This document shows, piece after piece, positions 13,519 through 49,634 of a stretch of 64,000 nt of DNA. The stretch covers positions 1-64,000 of the IMG/VR virus record IMGVR_UViG_3300020112_000604; one strand, given 5' to 3'. Source of the stretch: a virus. Its lineage: Duplodnaviria > Caudoviricetes. The position numbers were made by a program, and so were the translations under genes. The notes beneath the pieces are model-generated. The model saw only the letters and a program-made list of their open reading frames with translations, was not told the DNA's origin and did no database searches. Every line of letters begins with the position of its first letter. Position 1 is the stretch's first letter.

Positions 13519-13554
13519 GAGGAAGAGCCAATTAGGTTCTTCCTCTTATATTTT
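13519..13554 (+). terminator. Intrinsic terminator
   Basis: GAGGAAGAGCC-AATTA-GGTTCTTCCTC followed by TTATATTTT. Confidence 0.7.
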
Positions 13555-13680
13555 GGGAAAGTCAAACATTTCAGTTGTATACTATTATAGTGATAAGGAA
13601 CAAGAAAGCATCGTCCTTATTACATAAAACAATAGCCTATGATGCAGGGCACATTAGTACTTAGGAGGTACATTACTATG
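13555..13680 (+). repeat. Conserved early promoter plus structured 5' leader, copy 1
   Basis: GGGAAAGTC...TTGTATACTATTATAGTG, hairpin with GCATC loop, GCCT-ATGATGCA-GGGC, then GTACTTAGGAGGTAC and ATG; same architecture at 20618 and 49512. Confidence 0.85.
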
Positions 13681-14014: not shown

Positions 14015-14058
14015 AATGACTAGTAAGTTATTCATCAAATATAATTAATAGAAAGGAA

Positions 14059-14574
14059 ATGATTATTATGCCTAATTGGTGCGAAGGAGAACTTCGTGTA
14101 AGAGGACCACTTCAGAATCTTTTAAACTTCTTTCAGTATGGACTGCGTTTAACAGACCATACGTACTGTACGAAACCATTCAAACTGTTTCCGGTAAGAA
14201 TCGACACATCATGTTTCGGACCGGATGATGAAATCTATATATCCATACGTGATACGTGTTGGGTTAAAGGTTCATCCAGAGCATTTGTCGACAACGACGA
14301 AATAACAATTTACAAGCACAAATTCGATCCTGAAACGGAACAGGACATCTACTATGCGACAATTCCTACGATACGGCAGGCATGGAGTTTCGAAGCTGAT
14401 ACATATCTCGAACTGGCACGAACGTTCGGGGTAGACATTAAGATTTGGGGCGCTATGTGCTATCAGGAATTTGAACAGGAAATCGTGATAGAGAAAGGAG
14501 AACTAATCCGAGACGAGGAACACGACTACGATGATTGGGTTTGGGAATCAAGATTCCCGACTAATGGTTATTGA
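14059..14574 (+). CDS. Phage protein of the MPNWC / DUF1281 (YubB ferredoxin-like) type
   Basis: N-terminal MPNWCEGELRVRG and later QAWS...LARTFGV pattern typical of this family. Confidence 0.5.
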   Translation: MIIMPNWCEGELRVRGPLQNLLNFFQYGLRLTDHTYCTKPFKLFPVRIDTSCFGPDDEIYISIRDTCWVKGSSRAFVDNDEITIYKHKFDPETEQDIYYATIPTIRQAWSFEADTYLELARTFGVDIKIWGAMCYQEFEQEIVIEKGELIRDEEHDYDDWVWESRFPTNGY

Positions 14575-14590
14575 TGAAAAGGAGAAAATT

Positions 14591-16768
14591 ATGAATCTTA
14601 CAAACTATGAAGAATATGGTGTATTTGAAGAATTTGCAAGAACAGGTTTTCAGAGAATATATCCGGCTAAGCTCACCAAGAAGAATATTGAGAAGTATCG
14701 AATCGGTCTTCTTAATGTATTCAAGGATGGTGTTGAGCAGAATGAAGTACATGACGGAAGAATAGAGTTATATTGGGAAGAAGATAAGAAGTGTAAATTA
14801 TCACTTCAGGATACATTCATCAATATAGTACTTTGGTCAATGCTGGTATCTCTTGATGCTAAGATTGAACCATACAATTTATTTTATAGTAAGAATGTCA
14901 CAGGCGGCGACATCAAGGATTACATCGATACAAACGTTGTAAACAAGTATATCGACAAGGTTGATATTCTGATTCTTAACAGAACCATTTATAATGGATA
15001 TAAACATCTTATGGATATCGATATCTTCGCTGAATATCTGGCAAACACATTCGACCTTTACGATTTCGTAGAGCTGGCCGAAAAGTGTCCAGAAGTAGCG
15101 GAGATGTTTGACAGAGACTACTCAGACATTCCGATTGAAGAAATCAATGACTTCGGTGATAAGATAAACGCAAGGTTTATGGAAATCATCGAAAAGGAAA
15201 GTAAGTTATTCATCGGAAGAGACCATTGTTGTGCAAATGCGATAAGAGCTAAGGCAGGACTTAGTCCACGTCAGTTTAAGGAGCTTTCAGTAAACATCGG
15301 AACAAAGCCTGACGGACGTGGTTCAATCTATCCACATATCATCAACACATCATTCATCAACAGAGGTCTCGATTCATACGAATCAATCTTTGTTGAGACT
15401 GCATCGGCAGGACGTTATGCTCAGATCATTGCAAAGGGTAACGTTGCATCTTCAGGTGCATTCGCTCGAATCCTTGGTCTGAATAATATGGATACATTCT
15501 TAAATGATGATCCGCATTATACATGTAATACAAAGAACTTCGTTCGTCTTACAGTAACTTCAAAGAAGATATTCAATATGATTATCGGACGTTACTATCG
15601 TTGGACAGAATGTGGTGATGATCATTGTATCAGGGAAAAGGATAGAGATGACCTTATGGGCAAGACTATCCTTTTGAGAGACCCAATGACTTGTCAGAGC
15701 AAGGCTATGGGTTGTGGTATCTGTTACAAGTGCTATGGTAAGCTTGCTTACAATAACTGCACAATCAATATCGGTAAGATTGCAGCTGAAATACTTTCGT
15801 CAATCCTGACACAGCGTCTTCTTTCAGCTAAGCATCTTCTTACAGCAAAGCCAATCAAGATTGTATTCGGAGACATGTTCGGAGACTTCTTCTGTAATGA
15901 AGAAATGATGATAACTGTAAATCCGGAAGCAATCACAAAACACGCATTTGTCAAGATTGACATGGATTCAATCGAGTCTTCATTATCTGATGATGACGTT
16001 GACAATGAAGAAGAGGCTGCACTTGACATGAACGAATTTGTTAACGAATTCATTCTTGAAGTTGACGGTGTAGAATATCCTATGCATTCAGAAGCATTCG
16101 ACCCGTTATATCTCACATCAGAGTTTACGGATATCCTTAACAGGACACGTCCAAACTACGATGGTGAAAAGACATATAAGGTCATAGCACTGAATGACCT
16201 TAACGGAATAGCATTATTCCAGTTACCTCTTGTAAACAACGAACTCGTTAAAGCACTTAACGATATCAAGCACATTATCAATCTTACAAAGGTAACTTCA
16301 TCACTCAGCAAGGACGAAATCTTACAGAAGTTCCTTGAAGCTATCGTTCAGGGTGGTCTGTCAATTCATTCATCACATGCATCGGTTATCATCAGTAATC
16401 AGATCAGAGACAAGAATGACATTCTTGAAACTCCAGACTGGTCTGTACCGAATCAGACAAACTATCAGATTCTGCCGCTCTCCGCATCATTAAACAATCA
16501 TCCATCGGTAACAATCAGTTTAATGTATCAGGGAATCTCAAGAATGCTGGTAACGCCAACAACCTTTAAGAAACACAAGTCATCACGTATGGATCTGTAT
16601 TTCATGCAGAAACCTCAGAAATTCCTCGCAGGTACAGATAACTACGTGCAGAAGACAGCAACCAATGAACATGTTAATCCACTCGGAGCACCTCATGGAG
16701 CCGATTGGAAGACAAGGGAACAGGCATATCGCAGATATCTTGAAAAGATGGCTGCGCGCGAAGACTAA
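14591..16768 (+). CDS. Multisubunit RNA polymerase beta' C-terminal subunit, probably non-virion RNAP (phiKZ gp74 / AR9 gp154 type)
   Basis: Bridge-helix-like AGRYAQIIAKGNVASSGAFARIL, zinc site RDPMTC...GICYKCYG and trigger-loop-like IGKIAAEILSSILTQRLLSAKH. There is no DxDGD motif, so the enzyme is split. The gene lies downstream of an early promoter; SD AAGGAG precedes ATG 14591. Confidence 0.88.
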   Translation: MNLTNYEEYGVFEEFARTGFQRIYPAKLTKKNIEKYRIGLLNVFKDGVEQNEVHDGRIELYWEEDKKCKLSLQDTFINIVLWSMLVSLDAKIEPYNLFYSKNVTGGDIKDYIDTNVVNKYIDKVDILILNRTIYNGYKHLMDIDIFAEYLANTFDLYDFVELAEKCPEVAEMFDRDYSDIPIEEINDFGDKINARFMEIIEKESKLFIGRDHCCANAIRAKAGLSPRQFKELSVNIGTKPDGRGSIYPHIINTSFINRGLDSYESIFVETASAGRYAQIIAKGNVASSGAFARILGLNNMDTFLNDDPHYTCNTKNFVRLTVTSKKIFNMIIGRYYRWTECGDDHCIREKDRDDLMGKTILLRDPMTCQSKAMGCGICYKCYGKLAYNNCTINIGKIAAEILSSILTQRLLSAKHLLTAKPIKIVFGDMFGDFFCNEEMMITVNPEAITKHAFVKIDMDSIESSLSDDDVDNEEEAALDMNEFVNEFILEVDGVEYPMHSEAFDPLYLTSEFTDILNRTRPNYDGEKTYKVIALNDLNGIALFQLPLVNNELVKALNDIKHIINLTKVTSSLSKDEILQKFLEAIVQGGLSIHSSHASVIISNQIRDKNDILETPDWSVPNQTNYQILPLSASLNNHPSVTISLMYQGISRMLVTPTTFKKHKSSRMDLYFMQKPQKFLAGTDNYVQKTATNEHVNPLGAPHGADWKTREQAYRRYLEKMAARED

Positions 16769-20534: not shown

Positions 20535-20617
20535 ACTTTGAATAGATGATTCTTCCGATGTAGGGTGAGAGGTGCATTAAGCATCTCTCACAATTACATC
20601 CCCAAATTTTTTCTTAT

Positions 20618-20740
20618 GGAAAGTCTCTCATTTCAGTTATATATTATTATGGTGATAGGGAAATAGACGCATCACCTTATCTAATATAAGTAAACGCCCA
20701 TGATGCAGGGCATATATGTACTTAGGAGGTACTAATTATG
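20618..20740 (+). repeat. Conserved early promoter plus structured 5' leader, copy 2
   Basis: GGAAAGTC...TTATATATTAT...GATAGGG[..GCATCA]CCTTATC...GCCC-ATGATGCA-GGGC...GTACTTAGGAGGTAC...ATG. Confidence 0.85.
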
Positions 20741-23977: not shown

Positions 23978-25924
23978 TTAATAATCAGCGTTATCAACAG
24001 CAAAGTCGTTAAGACCCATGTTGTTGCCGATGAATGCTTCAAGGCCGCCCTGAGCAGCAACAGCGTCCATACCTGGCTTGAATGCAGCAGCATCTCTACC
24101 CATAACGTTAACGCATTTAATTCTAGCCTGAACTGGCTGGTATTCAAAGATGCCCCAACGGTCGAATGCTGTGATTGCAGGGAGATATACGTTTTCGCTT
24201 GAACGGAGTTCATTTGATACGTATGTCTGGTAATCGTAGATTCTGTACATGAATCTTTCGCTGTTCTTTGGTGTAAGAAGAACGATAAGGTTGTTCTGAT
24301 CTCTCATCTTGTCAGCTGAGATGAACTGGTATGTTCTGTTATCAGATGTCTGTACTGTCTTTACGAAGTCAAGCTGGAAAGGACCAACCTGTGATGGTGT
24401 TGACCATGTGTACTGTGTTGGTGTGAGCTTTCTGATAAGGTCTGATCTACCAACGATGTTAACGATAACGTTGCCGTCGTTCCAGATGTTGAGCATCTGT
24501 GTTACCCATGTATCGAGGTCCGGTAAGAATGCCTTCTTAGCCCAATCAAGATGATCATCAACGAACTGGAATGCTGGTGTGAAGTCAAAGATGTGTGACA
24601 TCTGAGCTCTCCAAGGCATCTTTCTGAATGAATCATCAAGGAATTCCTTAGCTGTTGAGTCTCTGTATTCTTCGAGCATTGTAGCGAAGAAGCTCATGTG
24701 CTTTGTAATCTGGTTTACGTTGTAAAGAACTGCAACGTCCTTCATTTCTTCAGGAGATACCTGAGCCTGGAGATGTGTAGCTTCAGGAATTCTCTCCATG
24801 TGAGTCTTACGAACCCATTCGCCGTGAGGTGAAGGAAGTGTACCAGTTGATGAAGCCTGACGGCAGCTGTAGATGAAGCCCTTAGCAGCTGTTGAGTTTG
24901 TCATAACTGAGAGAAGGTCATCTCTGCAAACGCCTGAGATAAGAACGTTCTCTGAAACAGCGCTTGTACCTGTTTCGTCAGCAACAGCGATTGTGATTTC
25001 GTGGTTGAAACCTGTTCTGTCTGAGTCACCGATGATTGGGTATGTGATGAGTCTTGTAGGAATGATAGCGTTTTCACACTTAACGTATGCAGCTGTTCCT
25101 GTGTTTGTGAATGTCTTAATAGCAGCTTCAACAGCAGCTGGATCACCAGCAGCAATAGCAGCGTCCATAGCTGTCCAGTCAACGTATTCAACTGATTCGC
25201 CAGGGCCAACCATTACGTCTGCAACGATACCTGAGATATGTGCATCTGTATCAAGGTGTTCCTGAATACCCTGAGGATTTCTTGAAACGCCTGTAGCATC
25301 AGCTGTGCAGCCGAAGAGTACATCAAGGAATCTTGTTGTCTTGTTTTCAGGGAACTTACAGCCAACTCTTCTCATTGGACGAGCGTTCTTAACAGCCTTA
25401 GCGATCTTATACTGCTCCTGGAACATGTCAAATTTCTCGCCTGTTGTTGGGTCAACGAGGAGTCTTACTTCTCTTTCAACCTGAACGTTTGGTGTGTTTG
25501 TTACGAGTCTTGGGATGATACCCTGCTGCCATACGCAGTTCATGAGAATATCCTTATGAAGCGGAGGTGTGAATGTCATTGTTGGGTTGAAGCCGTTGAT
25601 TGCCATAGCTTCACACATGCATTCTCTGTCGTTCTCATAGAAGAGAGCCATTTCTTCTTCAGCTTCGTTCATGAGTTCCGGATTACCACCGAGTTTTGGA
25701 TCAAACTTAGGGTCCTTCGGATCGTAAGCATACTTCTTGTAGTATGCGAGAAGATCGTTCTGAACAGCACTTTCGCAAAGTGCCATCTGAGTATTACTTA
25801 CAGGGTCGATCTGTGAGTTCTGCTTGATTGCTTTGAGTGTGTTTACCCAGTCCTTAGCAACTCCGTACATCTTGTCGCCAGTTGCTCTAACTTCCGGGCG
25901 TTTTGCTTCCTTATAGATAGCCAT
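23978..25924 (-). CDS. Major capsid protein precursor
   Basis: 648 aa with strong high-expression codon bias, its own promoter and terminator, and an N-terminal region carrying processing-type motifs (LCES, MNEA, MCEA). The C-terminal YRIYDYQTYVSNELR...LPAITAFDRW pattern resembles my recollection of AR9/PBS1-type capsid proteins. Confidence 0.75.
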   Translation of the reverse strand: MAIYKEAKRPEVRATGDKMYGVAKDWVNTLKAIKQNSQIDPVSNTQMALCESAVQNDLLAYYKKYAYDPKDPKFDPKLGGNPELMNEAEEEMALFYENDRECMCEAMAINGFNPTMTFTPPLHKDILMNCVWQQGIIPRLVTNTPNVQVEREVRLLVDPTTGEKFDMFQEQYKIAKAVKNARPMRRVGCKFPENKTTRFLDVLFGCTADATGVSRNPQGIQEHLDTDAHISGIVADVMVGPGESVEYVDWTAMDAAIAAGDPAAVEAAIKTFTNTGTAAYVKCENAIIPTRLITYPIIGDSDRTGFNHEITIAVADETGTSAVSENVLISGVCRDDLLSVMTNSTAAKGFIYSCRQASSTGTLPSPHGEWVRKTHMERIPEATHLQAQVSPEEMKDVAVLYNVNQITKHMSFFATMLEEYRDSTAKEFLDDSFRKMPWRAQMSHIFDFTPAFQFVDDHLDWAKKAFLPDLDTWVTQMLNIWNDGNVIVNIVGRSDLIRKLTPTQYTWSTPSQVGPFQLDFVKTVQTSDNRTYQFISADKMRDQNNLIVLLTPKNSERFMYRIYDYQTYVSNELRSSENVYLPAITAFDRWGIFEYQPVQARIKCVNVMGRDAAAFKPGMDAVAAQGGLEAFIGNNMGLNDFAVDNADY

Positions 25925-32788: not shown

Positions 32789-33040
32789 TTAGATGAGGCT
32801 AAACGCTTCGTCTCCTTCAACAAGAAGATCATAGTAATGACCAAGCTCTGGCATTGTAGGTTCTGTCTTGTCGTTGAGCTCCTCGGCCTCTGTTGCACAC
32901 ATTACATTGAATACGAGATTGCCAATCTGAATATGACCAATGATTCTGACCTCTACATCAAAATCTCCTGGGTCATGATAATTGCCTAATGTACCTACTG
33001 GTATCATATCATCACGTCCTTTCACTGTAATAGTATACAA
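32789..33040 (-). CDS. Small hypothetical protein (83 aa)
   Basis: Fills the gap between neighbours and is followed by a minus-strand terminator (GGCACTC hairpin plus T-run, about 32750-32783); weak SD. Confidence 0.45.
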   Translation of the reverse strand: MYTITVKGRDDMIPVGTLGNYHDPGDFDVEVRIIGHIQIGNLVFNVMCATEAEELNDKTEPTMPELGHYYDLLVEGDEAFSLI

Positions 33041-33052
33041 ATGAAAACCGGA

Positions 33053-33979
33053 TTAGAAGTTGCCGTTTGGACCTACAGCTACAAGTCTCCACTGGAGTCC
33101 GTAGTTTGAATTCGATACTGTCATTGTAAGCTTATTTACTTCAGCACCCTGCAGCATCATAGGGTCTGGTAATGGGTAGTTTGGTACTAACTGGTTAGTG
33201 TTTGTGTCAATTACACCGAAGTACTTTTCATCTGTAGCATCGTTGTAGAATACAACGGTTTCGATGTTTGGAGCATCGCCGATAATCATTCGGTTCTGTT
33301 CTGGTGTAAGAGTTGCTGCGAATGCTGCATATTCGTCCGAGTCATCCATTGTCTGCTGGAACTGATATGCTGGATTGTTATTAGCTAACGCTGCAGTCAT
33401 TGTAATTGGGTTATTAGGAATCTGCTGCTGTGTAGGCATATTGATATAAGCCTGGTAAAGGTCTGCTGTATACTTAGCATCACTTACTGCAGCTTCAGAA
33501 GCCTTCTGTGCCTGTGCTCGCTTCATTTCGAAGTTATGGCAATCTGTGTAGATCTTATTCTTTTCTCTTACGCAGTTAATCTCTGTAGAGAGAAGAGAGT
33601 TGATAGCACCTGCACATTCATTAAGGTGCATGAACTTGTTCTTCATTACCTTATTATTCTTAAGTAAGTCGAACTGAGTCTTGAGGTCGTTTACCATTAC
33701 ATTAGCCTGGGAAGCTATGTAATCGTACTGTTCAAGTGATTCCTTATATGAGTTGATATAAGGTGTGTTTGTTGAGAAGAGGTTGCCTACTGGAGCTGGA
33801 GCAGGCTGCTGTGCCGGGACAATCTCGTCACGGTTCTTAGGTGGTCTACCACGTCTCTTTGGTGCCTGTTCTCCCTCTGCCGGAGCGGCTTCGGTCTTCT
33901 CTTTTGGTACGGCTACGCCACGAGATAATACCTCGTAATCAATGTTAAGGCCGTAAGCTGTTTCTGTTTCTTTACTCAT
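33053..33979 (-). CDS. Hypothetical protein with an AT-hook motif and coiled coil
   Basis: KRRGRPPK; SD AAGGAGG; late promoter at 34019-34030. Confidence 0.65.
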   Translation of the reverse strand: MSKETETAYGLNIDYEVLSRGVAVPKEKTEAAPAEGEQAPKRRGRPPKNRDEIVPAQQPAPAPVGNLFSTNTPYINSYKESLEQYDYIASQANVMVNDLKTQFDLLKNNKVMKNKFMHLNECAGAINSLLSTEINCVREKNKIYTDCHNFEMKRAQAQKASEAAVSDAKYTADLYQAYINMPTQQQIPNNPITMTAALANNNPAYQFQQTMDDSDEYAAFAATLTPEQNRMIIGDAPNIETVVFYNDATDEKYFGVIDTNTNQLVPNYPLPDPMMLQGAEVNKLTMTVSNSNYGLQWRLVAVGPNGNF

Positions 33980-34018
33980 AATGGTTCCTCCTTATATGAA
34001 AAAGTGATGTATTTTTAT

Positions 34019-34043
34019 TATTTTGATGTTTAACATTATAATG
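34019..34043. promoter_or_regulatory. Back-to-back divergent late promoters
   Basis: Minus strand AACA-TCAAAA-TA (34030-34019); plus strand AACA-TTATAA-TG (34032-34043). Confidence 0.6.
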
Positions 34044-34145
34044 AGAGGTAAAACAACACCTCCATCTTTAAATTCTGTTTCTGTTCGCAAATCATCGCCT
34101 CCTAAGTCCCCATCCGGTTCGGCTCGGATGGGGAAATTTCTTTTC
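34043..34145 (+). ncRNA. Candidate small RNA with exposed anti-Shine-Dalgarno sequence
   Basis: Late promoter, 5' hairpin GAGGT/ACCTC, pyrimidine-rich body with CCTCCTAAGT, then terminator TCCCCATCCG/CGGATGGGGA plus a T-rich tail. No plus-strand gene upstream explains the terminator. Confidence 0.5.
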
Positions 34146-34157
34146 TACACAACCCGA

Positions 34158-34169
34158 AACTTTGAAGTA
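34158..34169 (+). promoter_or_regulatory. Late/middle promoter of the DNA polymerase gene
   Basis: AACT-TTGAAG-TA. Confidence 0.6.
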
Positions 34170-34205
34170 ACCGTAAAGGGTTTAAGAGTGAAAGGAGCAT
34201 GTTTT

Positions 34206-36227
34206 ATGGACAATATTATTACAGGATATAGTAAAGGTGCTAATATAACAATCATGAATACAATCAATCATCCAGGTCATTTTGGTGAAAACAACAAATG
34301 GATCGGGTCTAAGTTAGACCTGATCTATAAAGACTGCGATACAGGTAAAAAGGGTGTTGAACAGATTGATACCCCTATGTATGAGTATTATCTGTTAAAC
34401 GATGAAGCATATCACGTTGATTACAATCGTGACTTCATTGAGAGGGAAAACGTTCATCCAGTTATATGCGAACATCAGAAACTCAAGTATGATATAGCAG
34501 AGAAGACTGGTAATCTTGAATGGTTCAAACAGAATAAAGCCACAGGTAATGGTAGACTCAACAACAAAATTCATTATCATCCGGATGTATTCATGTCTGA
34601 CATGAATATCTCAGATCATTATCGTTTCCAGTTCAATACAAACTATAAGAATGAAGTATGTCCAATAACAAAGATGTACTTCGATATTGAGTGTGATACT
34701 ATCAATATTAAGGGTGACTTCCCGGAATTAGGGGAAGCACCGGTTAATGCTATTTCATGTATCATGGATCATACAGTATATGTATTCATTCCTAGAGACT
34801 ATACTATTCCGGGAATGGTTGCATTCGAAAAGGAAGTCAATGAACACAAAGCTGAACTCGAAGCTGAGTTCGTTAAGTTCATTCAGGACTATGTAGGTGG
34901 CAATAGACCAAAAGTTTATCAGAAACGTCTTAAGGCTCTCGATATGGAAGAACTTCATATCAAGTTTGCGTTCTACGATTCAGAGATTCAGTGCATAGCA
35001 GCATTCTTTGCAATGGTAAACAAGTTACAGCCGGACTTCGTCCTTGCGTGGAACATGGGATTCGATACTCCGACTCTGATTGAAAGAATTCGTCAGTGTG
35101 GTTATAAACCAGAAGACATTTGTTGTCATCCAGACTTCAAGAAGAACAGAGTTGCTGAATATGTAATCAAGTATTCAGACATAGCACCGGATGACTATGC
35201 AGAACGCGGAGACTATTGTAATATCAGCGGTTATAGTAACTGGATGTGTCAGCTTATTCAGTTTGCATCTAAGAGAAAGGGACAGCACGCAATCGAAAAC
35301 TATAAGATTGACTACATTGGTCAGTTAATATGTGGTGTACCGAAGCTTGACTATTCTCACATATGTGATTCTATCAAGGATCTTCCGAGAGCAGACTTCA
35401 GAACCTTTATCTTATACAATATTGTGGATACTATAGTTCAGAAGTGTATTGAAGAAAGAGTTAATGATATTGACTTCGTATTTGCGAATACAATAGCATT
35501 CAACACAAGATATTCTAAGGTACACAGACAGACTGTATTTCTTACTAATAAGAGAATCAAGGAATTCATGGCTTCAGGATTCGTTCCGGGTAATAACGTT
35601 AACAAAGAAAACGAAAAGAAAGAATATCCGGGTGGTTTCGTTGCAGACCTTGAACTCATATCACATTATCCTATGGATAAGATCAATGGTGTTCCAGTTA
35701 GACTGTTTAAGAACTTGGTTGACTTTGACTATAAGTCACTTTATCCATCTATCTGGCGTCAGTGGAATATGTGTAAGAATGGTATGATTGGTCAGATGAA
35801 TCTCTTAGAACCATCTAGATGCGGTAATAAGTTCGGGGTTAAGTGTTATGACACTAATATAGCATTTGCTCAGGATATTCATGCGGCAAACTGGATTGAG
35901 TTCGGTTGGAGATGGTTTGACTTACCAGACTTCGAAGAAATGGTTTCAGATTGTGAAGAGTACTTTAAGAATCATAGAACACAGGGTTATATGGCTCTTA
36001 ATCCAGATAATGGAGCAATCAAACTCTTCAGACCAAGAGACACAATAAACAAACCTATCAAACCTTGCAGACATTGGCAGGCTAACGAATTTGCTGATTA
36101 TAAGATTAACGATGTAAAGTGTATAAAGCCATATAGTCTTGATGTGCCTATGGATAAGCTTTATGACACATACTCAGTTAAGTTCTTTGAAGAGCGTTCG
36201 GATGTCGTAGCAATGGCTGAACAGTAA
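34206..36227 (+). CDS. Family B DNA polymerase, N-terminal subunit (3'-5' exonuclease plus motif A) of a split enzyme
   Basis: ExoI YFDIECD, ExoII AWNMGFD, ExoIII YNIVD, YPGGFV and motif A DFDYKSLYPS are present. KxxxNSxYG and DTDS are absent. SD AAAGGAG precedes ATG 34206. Confidence 0.85.
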   Translation: MDNIITGYSKGANITIMNTINHPGHFGENNKWIGSKLDLIYKDCDTGKKGVEQIDTPMYEYYLLNDEAYHVDYNRDFIERENVHPVICEHQKLKYDIAEKTGNLEWFKQNKATGNGRLNNKIHYHPDVFMSDMNISDHYRFQFNTNYKNEVCPITKMYFDIECDTINIKGDFPELGEAPVNAISCIMDHTVYVFIPRDYTIPGMVAFEKEVNEHKAELEAEFVKFIQDYVGGNRPKVYQKRLKALDMEELHIKFAFYDSEIQCIAAFFAMVNKLQPDFVLAWNMGFDTPTLIERIRQCGYKPEDICCHPDFKKNRVAEYVIKYSDIAPDDYAERGDYCNISGYSNWMCQLIQFASKRKGQHAIENYKIDYIGQLICGVPKLDYSHICDSIKDLPRADFRTFILYNIVDTIVQKCIEERVNDIDFVFANTIAFNTRYSKVHRQTVFLTNKRIKEFMASGFVPGNNVNKENEKKEYPGGFVADLELISHYPMDKINGVPVRLFKNLVDFDYKSLYPSIWRQWNMCKNGMIGQMNLLEPSRCGNKFGVKCYDTNIAFAQDIHAANWIEFGWRWFDLPDFEEMVSDCEEYFKNHRTQGYMALNPDNGAIKLFRPRDTINKPIKPCRHWQANEFADYKINDVKCIKPYSLDVPMDKLYDTYSVKFFEERSDVVAMAEQ

Positions 36228-36965: not shown

Positions 36966-39335
36966 ATGGCCAAAGATAATAAACGGGAGTCAAGATCTCA
37001 GCGTGCTAAATATAAACAGCATAACGCTAAGATTAACGCTCTCGCAAAGTTTTTAAATTCAAACGGTGATGGCATCAAACGTACCGTCACATATACAGAC
37101 CCTAAGGACGACAGAGACTACGAGAGAGTAACTTCCGGCATGGAAGATACCCTTGACAGATTGCTCGACGGAATTAATACCGACGGCTCAAGTAATGCCG
37201 GCGGTATGGGTTCATCATCATTAACACATCGTTTTGCGGATAACGGAACAAGCGAAGAAGACATCATTAAAATGCAGAAAGATTTCAACAATCTGTTAGC
37301 ATTATCAGCTAACGATAGTTCATTCTTATCTGGTATGGCTAATGATGACTTAGTTGAACATGACTTACGTATCGACACAGTGCTGCATTACTGTCCTAAG
37401 CTTGATGAAGCTCTTAATGCTAAAGCAGACTGTATTCTTTCAGCTGACCATTTTGATAGAACGTTTATCAACGTTACATCCGAATCATCTGCAGAGCAGG
37501 AAGAATCCGTATTCAATCAGCGTGTTTCTGAACTCATGGAAATGCATGAGTTTGAAGATAAAGCCGATGAATGGTATCGTGAAGCAGCTAAGTATGGTGA
37601 GGTATACGTATACCGTGTTCCATTCGACAAAGCTACATCACGTTTACTCCGTGCTAAGGATGCATCCAATATGGCTTTACAGAAAGCATCAATTAATGCT
37701 TGTGGCATTGTTGGTGAAGGTGTAAGCTGTAATTGGTCTAAAGATGAATCTGAAATGATTACTGAGAATTTCGGCGAAGACTTCAGTATTGAAGTCGAAA
37801 TCAATAAGAGCGGATTAATTACTGATGTAGTTAACGAAGCTTACTCTATTCATGAAGCAATGTCTTTCAACGAAAGCATGTGTCTTAGCAGCTTCAATGA
37901 AGTAGCTGACGATTGTGATGGCGAAGCTATATCTGCTATGGGTAGAGCACCTAAGAGAAAGTATGATGTACTTATTCCATCAGATTCGTTAGACTATAAA
38001 TCATTCAACAAAGTAACACGTCACAAAGGTGACAAGGTTACAATCACAGGTGCAGAGGATGGTCTTGTTGATCCATCTAAGACTAGTATTTCAAATTATG
38101 AAATCAATATCCCTGGCACAATAATCAAGAAGTTACCTCGTAAAAACGTTATTCCACGTTATATAGGTGACACTTGCCTTGGATACACATATATTGAATT
38201 ATTAGACACTGCCCGCTCCGAAAACCAAAGAATACGTAACTTCAGGAGCACAATTAATCCTATCAACACAATGACAGGATATACTCAGAACCATCCAGAT
38301 GCTAAGAAAGAGTCTCCGGATGAAGAAGCTGTTAAGTTTATGGCTAAGCGTATTGCTAGTTTCATAGACACAAACTTCGTAAACAACAACCAGGATATCG
38401 CTCAGGATATCTATACAATCCTCAAGTACAATGATGACCTTTGCTCTAACAAGAAAGTTAGAATTACATTCATTCCGCCACAGGATATGTGTCACATATT
38501 CTTCAAACAGGACCCGATTACTCATCGCGGTATTTCGGATATTGAAGACTCTATCGTTCCTGCTACATTATACTCCGCTATGTTTATCACTAACGCTATC
38601 TGGAATCTCACCAGAGGCCAGGATAAGAGAGTATACTACGTAAAGCAGAACGTTGATACAAACACTTCACAGGTGTTACTTAACACCATTGACCAGATTA
38701 AGAAAGGTAATATGGGTATTCGTCAGATTGAGAATATCTCTCATATCCTTAACGTAACTGGTAGATTCAACGATTATCTTATTCCTACATCGGCATCTGG
38801 CGAAGAACCAATGCGTATGGAAATCTTACAGGGACAGACTGTAGAACTGCAGTCTGAACTCATGCAGGTTCTCTTAGAAGCTGCAATTATACCTACAGGT
38901 ATTCCTATGGAATACATCGAACAGAGACGTAGCGTTGAATTCGCTACACAGCTCACTATGTCAAACAACAAGTTCCTTATGATTGTATATAAGCGTCAGA
39001 ACAAGGTGCAGAAGATTCTCACTAAGGAACTTAAGGTTATGTACTTCAACCAGTATGGTGAAACATGTGCTCTTAAGGTTAAACTTCCACCTCCGATGTT
39101 CCTGAACATCACTAACATCAATCAGATCATGATGAACGTAGCTGATATGGCTCAGAAGTTAGTTGAAATCATGGGCGTCGGATACAATGAAGAAATACTT
39201 CCTTATGTACAGAAAGCAATCACTGTTAAGTATCTCGGTACATATATAGACCTTGATGACATTGAAGATATCATGAAGAATGCTGAGCATGAATACATGA
39301 TAGAACACAAGTCGGAGAACGGCGAAGAAATGTAA
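36966..39335 (+). CDS. Portal protein (T4 gp20 / phiKZ-like)
   Basis: WYREAAKYGEVY, TRGQDKRVYYV, NDYLIP, MEILQGQ and TGIPMEYI follow the order of T4 gp20 conserved blocks (RWYVDG, RAPERRIFYID, EDYWLP, ITTLPG, LxVPxSR). Confidence 0.78.
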   Translation: MAKDNKRESRSQRAKYKQHNAKINALAKFLNSNGDGIKRTVTYTDPKDDRDYERVTSGMEDTLDRLLDGINTDGSSNAGGMGSSSLTHRFADNGTSEEDIIKMQKDFNNLLALSANDSSFLSGMANDDLVEHDLRIDTVLHYCPKLDEALNAKADCILSADHFDRTFINVTSESSAEQEESVFNQRVSELMEMHEFEDKADEWYREAAKYGEVYVYRVPFDKATSRLLRAKDASNMALQKASINACGIVGEGVSCNWSKDESEMITENFGEDFSIEVEINKSGLITDVVNEAYSIHEAMSFNESMCLSSFNEVADDCDGEAISAMGRAPKRKYDVLIPSDSLDYKSFNKVTRHKGDKVTITGAEDGLVDPSKTSISNYEINIPGTIIKKLPRKNVIPRYIGDTCLGYTYIELLDTARSENQRIRNFRSTINPINTMTGYTQNHPDAKKESPDEEAVKFMAKRIASFIDTNFVNNNQDIAQDIYTILKYNDDLCSNKKVRITFIPPQDMCHIFFKQDPITHRGISDIEDSIVPATLYSAMFITNAIWNLTRGQDKRVYYVKQNVDTNTSQVLLNTIDQIKKGNMGIRQIENISHILNVTGRFNDYLIPTSASGEEPMRMEILQGQTVELQSELMQVLLEAAIIPTGIPMEYIEQRRSVEFATQLTMSNNKFLMIVYKRQNKVQKILTKELKVMYFNQYGETCALKVKLPPPMFLNITNINQIMMNVADMAQKLVEIMGVGYNEEILPYVQKAITVKYLGTYIDLDDIEDIMKNAEHEYMIEHKSENGEEM

Positions 39336-49421: not shown

Positions 49422-49511
49422 AGATGTATTCCTCCTTTAATATTACACACCTATTGTGTGCTACAACATATATTATCTTAAGGTTATGTGTTCTTTCCAA
49501 AATTACAAGTT

Positions 49512-49634
49512 GGGAAAGTCGAATCTTTCGATTGTATACTATTATAGTGATAGAGAATATAAAAGCATCACTCTATTAATAAATGAAAACGCCTATGATG
49601 CAGGGCAAAGAGTACTAAGGAGGTACTAAAAATG
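49512..49634 (+). repeat. Conserved early promoter plus structured 5' leader, copy 3
   Basis: GGGAAAGTC...TTGTATACTATTATAGTG-ATAGAG[..GCATCA]CTCTAT...GCCT-ATGATGCA-GGGC...AGTACTAAGGAGGTACT...ATG. Confidence 0.85.

Follow-up and report, generated by a model that had tools for sequence, protein, structure and literature searches.

What is transcribed from the third promoter in a short spacer that separates two divergent genes of a jumbo phage? The spacer in question (positions 33980-34205, 226 nucleotides (nt)) belongs to the IMG/VR record IMGVR_UViG_3300020112_000604, a single virus record of 183,720 bp with an estimated completeness of ~75%, the first 64 kb of which are referred to hereafter as the window. 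The source phage is an uncultured, distant relative of the AR9/PBS1 jumbo-phage group. The spacer divides a minus-strand gene of a 308-amino acid (aa) protein from the plus-strand DNA polymerase gene and contains three AACA-type promoter motifs, assigned to the 308-aa gene (minus strand), the DNA polymerase gene (plus strand) and a putative small RNA (plus strand). The original prediction, made from the sequence of the window, ascribed to the last of these promoters an antisense RNA directed against the repeated leaders of early mRNAs. The analysis presented here points to another partner. On balance, and with moderate confidence, we propose a small RNA gene, with an AACA-N6-TG promoter and a terminator of its own, whose product would pair in trans with the mRNA of the neighbouring 308-aa gene and lower its translation.

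The predicted small RNA gene

In AR9, late promoters conform to the consensus AACA-(6N)-TA/G, the last base of which is the transcription start site (TSS), and early promoters to AAATATATATTAT-(6N)-G, as determined by differential RNA sequencing (dRNA-seq) (PMC5312081). Both grammars, early and late, are in use in the genome analyzed here. Motifs of the early TTATATATTATA type are found ahead of one gene set, six members of which then carry a common ~90-nt leader, while AACW-N6-TA is enriched 3.7-fold in the intergenic DNA, 48 of its 66 intergenic sites being localized ≤120 nt upstream of a same-strand gene, typically just past a terminator. The late-type promoter indicated in the original prediction is present and agrees with the AR9 late consensus throughout, i.e., AACA at -11 to -8, six bases, T at -1 and A/G at +1 (Table 1).

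The strong GC hairpin with a T-rich tail, described in the same prediction, was also found. Seven of the 11 base pairs of its stem are GC pairs, the tail contains 8 T in 12 nt, and the site was flagged as a plus-strand terminator-like site; both hallmarks of an intrinsic terminator, i.e., a GC-rich hairpin followed by a U tract and compensatory changes in the stem (see below), are present. As stated before, the polymerase gene has its own promoter past this hairpin and there is no plus-strand gene upstream of the module that would have to be terminated. The fold of the RNA (-26.8 kcal/mol, z-score -2.8) comprises a 5' hairpin (nt 3-20), a pyrimidine-rich single strand of ~43 nt (nt 21-64) and the terminator, in accordance with the ~100-nt RNA envisaged at first, and nt 21-64, which hold the seed, are predicted to be >80% unpaired. 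The plus strand of the module contains no open reading frame (ORF) and no start codon preceded by a Shine-Dalgarno (SD) sequence. The Rfam covariance-model search assigned it to no family, the best E-values (0.9-6) belonging to unrelated eukaryotic or small nucleolar RNA (snoRNA) models. Based on these features and on the conservation described below, the segment from 34043 to ~34146 (plus strand) is most likely an independent non-coding RNA gene.

Table 1. Coordinates of the small RNA module, of its flanking genes and of other elements mentioned in the text (window positions, unless indicated otherwise; UTR, untranslated region; RNAP, RNA polymerase)
Feature	Position	Strand	Remarks
AR9-type late promoter AACA-TTATAA-T-G	34032-34043	+	AACA 34032-35, TTATAA 34036-41, T 34042, G 34043 (predicted TSS)
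Predicted non-coding small RNA	34043-34146	+	~100 nt (104 nt as folded); promoter and terminator of its own
5' hairpin GAGGU/ACCUC	34045-34062	+	right after the TSS; RNA nt 3-20
CUGUUUCUGUU	34075-34085	+	complement of AACAGAAACAG, codons 4-8 of the 308-aa mRNA (33968-33958)
Putative anti-start-codon and anti-SD segment CAU-CG-CCUCCU	34093-34103	+	in the single-stranded region
Intrinsic terminator (predicted)	34107-34146	+	11-bp stem, 6-nt loop, T-rich tail; hairpin 34107-34134, then AATTTCTTTTCT
DNA polymerase promoter AACTTTGAAGTA	34158-34169	+	37 nt before ATG 34206; after the terminator in 16/18 clusters
308-aa gene promoter AACATCAAAATA	34019-34030	-	AACA-N6-TA; TSS ~34019; 40 nt before the ATG
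Proposed target in the 308-aa mRNA	33950-34019	-	complementarity to the small RNA; 5' UTR, SD (33993-33987), AUG (33979-33977) and first codons
308-aa gene	33053-33979	-	predicted disordered N-terminus with KRxRGRP, coiled coil, C-terminal beta domain
DNA polymerase gene	34206-36227	+	family B
RNAP beta-like subunit gene	14531-16768		
Major head protein gene	23978-25924		
Portal-like protein gene	36966-39335		
Early leader copies, window	13540-13677, 20600-20737, 49500-49631		
Early leader copies, genome positions	~100774-100900 (-), 120400-120519 (+), 161304-161430 (-)		

For the comparative analysis of the module, contigs encoding homologs of the 308-aa protein were fetched from public assemblies (metagenomic and IMG/VR loci), which gave ~54 loci representing 31 distinct sequences and 18 clusters (308-aa protein identity 31-99%). 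The divergent pair of the 308-aa gene and the DNA polymerase gene is kept in all fetched contigs, and the common order of elements within the spacer is: a minus-strand promoter, a plus-strand promoter, a 5' hairpin, a CU-rich body of 40-106 nt, a hairpin of 8-15 perfect Watson-Crick pairs, a T-rich tail, a second plus-strand promoter and the polymerase gene. At the homologous position of the first plus-strand promoter, AACA-N6-T[AG] was found in 18/18 clusters, in the form AACA-N6-TA in every clade except that of the window (TG). The minus-strand promoter, AACATCAAAATA, which was absent from the original prediction, is a perfect motif, and AACW-N6-T[AG] occurs at the equivalent relative place of the minus strand in 17/18 clusters. 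The AACA elements of the plus- and minus-strand promoters lie back to back, 1 nt apart in the window and up to ~26 nt apart in the relatives.

When the strongest perfect hairpin of each spacer was picked blind to its tail, the 12 nt past it contained on average 7.2 T on the plus strand and 3.5 on the minus strand, the plus strand being richer in 18/18 clusters (p=1.8e-4). The stems vary in sequence with pairing retained: double changes affect 9/16 terminator pairs when the window's clade is taken with the next one (A2), 10/12 pairs in a distant clade (A3) and, within the window's clade, 3/4 pairs of the 5' hairpin. Nearly all relatives have a CAU with a CU-rich motif after it, the motif CUGUUUCUGUU is kept in clusters L001, L004 and L006, and in a relative with 99% identity (L013) the small RNA is identical. 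In strain contigs with ~2% divergence, none of the substitutions listed falls within 34022-34229, as compared with ~3 per 100 nt in the flanking genes, which is weak evidence. In summary of these comparisons, the conservation of the promoter, body and terminator across relatives exceeds chance.

The same DNA may also be read on the minus strand, where ACTTAGGAGG might serve a small ORF (TTG 34090, 32 aa; ATG 34095, 19 aa) as its SD or, together with the hairpin, stabilise the 308-aa mRNA as a STAB-SD-like 5'-UTR element. AGGAGG is a regular SD in this genome, with strong and uniform translation signals (84 of its 99 copies sit 3-14 nt ahead of a called gene), the TTG is placed 7 nt downstream of the SD-like motif, and the 32-aa ORF ends inside the SD of the 308-aa gene. 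Nevertheless, the conserved minus-strand promoter is localized downstream of the SD-like ACTTAGGAGG, no minus-strand promoter motif was found upstream of the hairpin, and the terminator tail faces the plus strand in 18/18 clusters. Moreover, the minus-strand ORFs range from 2 to >32 aa, are unrelated between clusters and are missing in 5/22 sequences, and the window, L001 and L006 each read the conserved AACAGAAAC in a different frame. The 32-aa ORF (TTG 34090 to TAA 33992), named as the alternative in the original prediction, was consequently rejected, its peptide being unconserved and a conserved promoter lying downstream, and a function on the minus strand appears highly improbable. What recurs on the minus strand as an SD, a short spacer and an ATG is, on the plus strand, CAU and CCUCC in mirror image, i.e., an anti-initiation region.

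Complementarity to the ribosome-binding site of the neighbouring gene

The RNA was compared with all initiation regions of the genome, defined as -40 to +30 around 166 starts and ranked by duplex energy. The longest exact complement to its body, the 11-nt pairing CUGUUUCUGUU:AACAGAAACAG, falls within codons 4-8 of the 308-aa gene, the longest matches in the other regions being ≤9 nt. In addition, CAU is predicted to pair with the AUG (33979-33977) and CCUCCU with AGGAGG (33992-33987), so that the window duplex consists of three helices over the ribosome-binding site, with an energy of -25.7 kcal/mol.

Further evidence comes from the relatives, whose RNAs were each combined with their own (cognate) and with the other (non-cognate) 308-aa initiation regions in permutation tests with 18 cluster representatives. 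The duplex energy was -25.7 for cognate and -21.0 kcal/mol for non-cognate pairs, and the longest seed was 8.1 and 6.8 nt, respectively (0/20000 permutations in both cases); the cofold energy net of intramolecular structure was -11.7 for cognate and -8.6 for non-cognate pairs (p=1e-4). With structure taken into account, the control regions gave no such effect (polymerase initiation region p=0.21, next gene downstream p=0.27, second next gene p=0.36), while with raw duplex energy they were marginal (p=0.048, p=0.011 and p=0.67, respectively). The reverse complement of the RNA showed no cognate effect. In the mirror-strand test, which rests on the difference between G:U and A:C, the proposed strands were favoured by 5.0 kcal/mol in cognate and by 3.4 kcal/mol in non-cognate pairs, which reflects a compositional bias.

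In every cluster the predicted duplex takes in 5-11 nt of the SD region, and in 13/18 it spans the complete AUG; the sequences involved vary by clade. L008 pairs through UCCAAAUGAU across the start codon, L017, L025 and L012 through AUGUCU and GAGGAAU/A (in L017, AUGUCUU and GAGGAAU), L019 and L021 through GAGGAAAUCA, AUGC and the upstream AAUGCUCA, and L004 and L006 through the AACAGAAAC codons. For each relative, the neighbouring gene is a better partner of the RNA than the corresponding genes of other relatives, i.e., the complementarity is cognate-specific. An independent non-coding unit, an unpaired seed directed to the SD and the start codon, and covariation of RNA and target, all expected of a base-pairing small RNA, are found together at this locus. 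It is also worth mentioning that in the clade of L008, L011 and L014-L016 the SD of the 308-aa homolog is an unusual AAGGGGG, with which CCUCCU can still pair via G:U. A second CU-rich motif, present in distant clades, was considered as directed against the next gene downstream and was rejected (p=0.011 for duplex energy, not significant with structure, and inconsistent duplexes).

The synthesis of the RNA, its pairing in vivo and the repression are all three inferred from sequence, and the mechanism that we favour may be outlined as follows. The phage non-virion-type RNA polymerase (RNAP) would fire divergently from the two back-to-back promoters, producing the 308-aa mRNA in one direction and a short hairpin-capped RNA in the other, the latter being stopped by its terminator just ahead of the DNA polymerase promoter. 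The 5' and terminator hairpins would bracket the ~43-nt single strand, which could anneal in trans to the 308-aa mRNA (CCUCCU with the SD, CAU with the start codon and CUGUUUCUGUU with codons 4-8). Such annealing would block 30S binding, so that less of the 308-aa protein would be made or its production would be delayed, and the mRNA might be degraded as well. Since both promoters are of one class, the RNA might act as a fixed-ratio damper or as a threshold or delay element.

Several observations weigh against this proposal. Concerning the transcript itself, the AACW-N6-TG form of the promoter, unlike the -TA form, is not enriched in this genome, and the only RNA-library run with parts of the stretch (X20) contains them as unstranded contigs (depth 3-5) that cover both genes and the spacer, lack usable ends and carry no information on expression. 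Concerning the pairing, a bulge of 5 nt and an internal loop of 7x8 nt interrupt the window duplex, and ten initiation regions surpass that of the 308-aa gene in duplex energy (rank 11 of 166); in L001 the CUGUUUCUGUU motif is retained next to a gene without the matching codons, and in the most distant clusters (L029, L035, L036 and L080) the cognate effect is weak or absent. As the clusters share ancestry, fewer independent events underlie the permutation tests than the p-values suggest, perhaps five or six separate pairing solutions instead of 18. Concerning the maintenance of the module, L030 (1150-1500) differs from the near-identical L024, L026 and L027 by an exact loss between the two plus-strand AACA promoters, which left a hybrid promoter, while its flanks and the 308-aa initiation region are otherwise identical, i.e., the target was retained; more distant relatives, with spacers of 88-142 nt, are without the module. 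The precise loss in L030 and the lack in more distant relatives indicate a discrete and dispensable unit. Finally, the regulatory logic (threshold or delay) is a conjecture, both transcripts depending on one promoter class.

Alternatively, the RNA might be a generic anti-SD molecule, mimicking the 3' end of 16S rRNA (AUCACCUCCU in L001 and L006), binding many host and phage SDs and damping or redirecting translation globally. Consistent with this, UCCUC/CCUCCU is the most conserved feature of the body in all clusters, and the RNA reaches duplex energies of -23 to -30 kcal/mol with many initiation regions; over the 166 regions the mean is -17.9 (standard deviation 4.5) and the best value -29.6 kcal/mol, with no region standing out. 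Such an RNA would, however, strike the phage's own AGGAGG-dependent genes (84 SDs), and it would leave unexplained both the conserved CAU and the clade-specific pairing beyond the SD, which is neighbour-specific and absent for the control regions. We regard this explanation as unlikely.

Another explanation dispenses with any function in trans and takes the module for an insulator or promoter-competition element, or for an attenuated leader of the DNA polymerase mRNA, with the short RNA as a by-product. The polymerases must compete where AACA elements are 1 nt apart, a terminator stands directly ahead of the polymerase promoter in all clusters, and L030 and the distant relatives can do without the module. 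On the other hand, a by-product would not be expected to retain a 5' hairpin, single-stranded motifs and cognate-specific complementarity, and the polymerase has its own conserved promoter; a purely transcriptional role seems improbable to us. In the course of this analysis, an extension of the DNA polymerase ORF to TTG 34023 (734 aa) was also considered and rejected, as it would span the terminator hairpin and two promoters, and an SD precedes ATG 34206. The polymerase frame is open for 61 codons upstream of this ATG (34023-34205), most likely by chance, and the SD in front of it is GAAAGGAG.

Early leaders and a possible wider RNA system

The target named in the original prediction was the family of repeated early leaders, with whose SD-enclosing loops the late small RNA was thought to pair, shutting off early translation and so providing an early-to-late switch. 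This family consists of an early promoter and a ~90-nt leader (TTGTATAyTATTATAGTGATAAGG ... GCCTATGATGCAGGGCA ... GTACTTAGGAGGTAC) and is present in the genome in six or more copies rather than the three assumed at first (Table 1). Its core was found in none of the 84 locus contigs fetched.

The proposed match exists, i.e., CCTCCTAAGT (34098-34107) is the exact 10-nt complement of ACTTAGGAGG at 13659 and 20720, but it does not go beyond chance: with ≤1 mismatch, ACTTAGGAGG occurs 6 times versus 2.6 expected, and 4 of 100 shuffles reach 6. T34107 belongs to the terminator stem, which leaves 9 nt of the match in the single strand, for the most part generic SD sequence. Generic, too, are the complementarity of AATCAT to ATGATT and the 8-nt match to the portal gene, which had been cited in support. 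The leader family does stand behind early-type promoters, the same leader SD context recurs before the gene at 120520, and the leader region of the gene at 20738 ranks 8th of 166; the six leader regions as a whole are scattered over ranks 8, 22, 63, 72, 90 and 123 of 166 by duplex energy, i.e., they do not stand above other SD-containing messages. Furthermore, the flank that would confer specificity, UAAGU, is unconserved among close relatives (UAAAG in L001, CUCUC in L004 and UAUUU in L006). As the early leaders are not supported as specific targets, the early-to-late switch is unsupported as well, and we consider it a poor candidate for the function of this RNA. What stands of the trans-acting antisense RNA of the original prediction is a stand-alone, late-promoter small RNA with an exposed anti-SD segment, for which the leaders or other SD-containing messages may be secondary targets.

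That a late RNA could act on early messages in this phage is made plausible by another late-promoter RNA array, which carries a 16-nt perfect complement to the initiation region of an early gene. At genome positions 112154-112700, outside the window, the late-type promoter AACAATGCTATA drives an ORF-poor run of hairpin-bounded CU-rich units. One of these (~112634-112649) is perfectly complementary over 16 nt to ATAGAAAGGAAATGAT (window 14048-14063), the SD region of the early-type gene at 14068, and, over 11-13 nt, fits the TATAGAAAGGA context of several further early-type genes too. This array suits the idea of late RNAs silencing early messages better than the RNA at 34043 does.

It is conceivable, and offered here as a tentative suggestion, that the RNA at 34043 belongs to a larger set of phage-encoded RNAs against initiation regions, which the phage's own polymerase would make from AACA-type promoters and each of which would be tuned to particular phage messages. 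If true, this would amount to an RNA-based temporal control of translation atop the two-polymerase transcription programme of AR9-like jumbo phages. In jumbo phages with their own multisubunit RNAPs, the timing of gene expression is explained almost wholly by promoter classes; to this programme, a conserved RNA made by the phage polymerase and directed against the ribosome-binding site of one particular phage message would contribute regulation after transcription. Most of the regulatory small RNAs known come from temperate phages and prophages (review PMC12197685). The locus lends itself to direct tests of an RNA and its putative target, for which covariation and a deletion variant are available in nature, and its back-to-back promoters, which would yield a message and the antagonist of that message, represent a compact, portable design of translation control for hosts with SD-dependent (Firmicute-type) initiation.

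Related RNAs and the genomic setting

By analogy, the RNA would work like the phage RNAs directed against ribosome-binding sites (c4 and sar) and like the SD-targeting small RNAs of Firmicutes. The c4 RNA of the temperate phages P1/P7 is an antisense RNA processed from the transcript of its target, and it controls an antirepressor (immunity). As in the case described here, a phage small RNA lies beside a non-overlapping target, short exposed segments pair at the ribosome-binding region and block translation, and RNA and target covary between related phages. The present RNA, which is unrelated to c4 in sequence, comes from a jumbo phage that encodes an RNAP of its own; unlike c4, it has its own promoter and terminator and is transcribed divergently from its putative target, an uncharacterised gene. 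In the review that lists c4 of phage P1/P7, sar of P22 and OOP of lambda are given as ~70-77 nt phage RNAs with their own promoter and terminator, sar pairing at the ant ribosome-binding site (PMC12197685). These two resemble the present RNA as short promoter-terminator phage transcripts that pair with a phage mRNA, but they are cis-antisense and perfectly complementary by overlap, whereas here transcription is predicted to start at two divergent sites separated by 24 nt, the RNA does not overlap its target, and the two are complementary only in part, with selection maintaining the match. A cis-antisense RNA of the OOP/sar type was therefore rejected for this locus: the predicted TSSs at 34043 (plus strand) and 34019 (minus strand) diverge, and the RNA (34043-34146) does not overlap the mRNA.

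The C-rich small RNAs of Firmicutes (RsaE/RoxS and RNAIII type) are chromosomal, transcribed by the host RNAP and directed against many metabolic mRNAs. They share with the present RNA a 5' hairpin, unpaired C/U-rich motifs opposed to GGAGG-type SDs and a Rho-independent terminator, and they differ from it in that the latter is phage-borne, has an AR9-type promoter and extended pairing to one neighbouring gene, and gave no Rfam match. In AR9 itself, seven late promoters drive antisense transcription (PMC5312081). These transcripts have the promoter class AACA-(6N)-TA/G in common with the RNA described here and, unlike it, overlap annotated genes. At the AR9 polymerase locus no counterpart of the module was found, the divergent gene pair upstream of the DNA polymerase being lacking, and the AR9 dRNA-seq data are not transferable, because the AR9 polymerase has co-directional upstream genes and an early promoter.

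The putative target, the 308-aa protein, matched no Pfam or PHROG family, and its 18 homologs in public assemblies show 31-99% identity. Its disordered N-terminus contains an invariant, AT-hook-like P-K-x-R-G-R motif, followed in the model by a predicted coiled coil of 100 residues and, at the C-terminus, by a beta domain modelled with confidence, in which the motifs PEQNRMI and DPNIET are invariant. The AlphaFold2 (AF2) model has a predicted local distance difference test (pLDDT) score of 66.7. Its structural matches in BFVD are uncharacterised phage or viral proteins, including one distant match from AR9, and no structural match was found in the PDB. Among cultured phages there is no close relative of the protein and no close DNA relative of the region, and single-protein scans of viral contigs gave no match; near-identical DNA was found in faecal, gut, soil and wastewater metagenomes.

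Among the other genes of the window, the DNA polymerase shows ~30% identity to the enzymes of AR9, PBS1 and Staphylococcus jumbo phages, and the RNAP beta-like subunit matches phrog_3015 at 4e-47; the Pfam RNAP beta model PF00562 found no match in the genome, the record being ~75% complete and the subunits divergent. Next to the 308-aa gene, in the 45-nt gap that follows it (33010-33052, minus strand), there is an early-type promoter-like motif, TTGTATACTATTACAGTG, and then GAAAGGA and ATG 33007. Because this early-type motif precedes it, the small gene 33007-32789 may differ in temporal class from the 308-aa gene.

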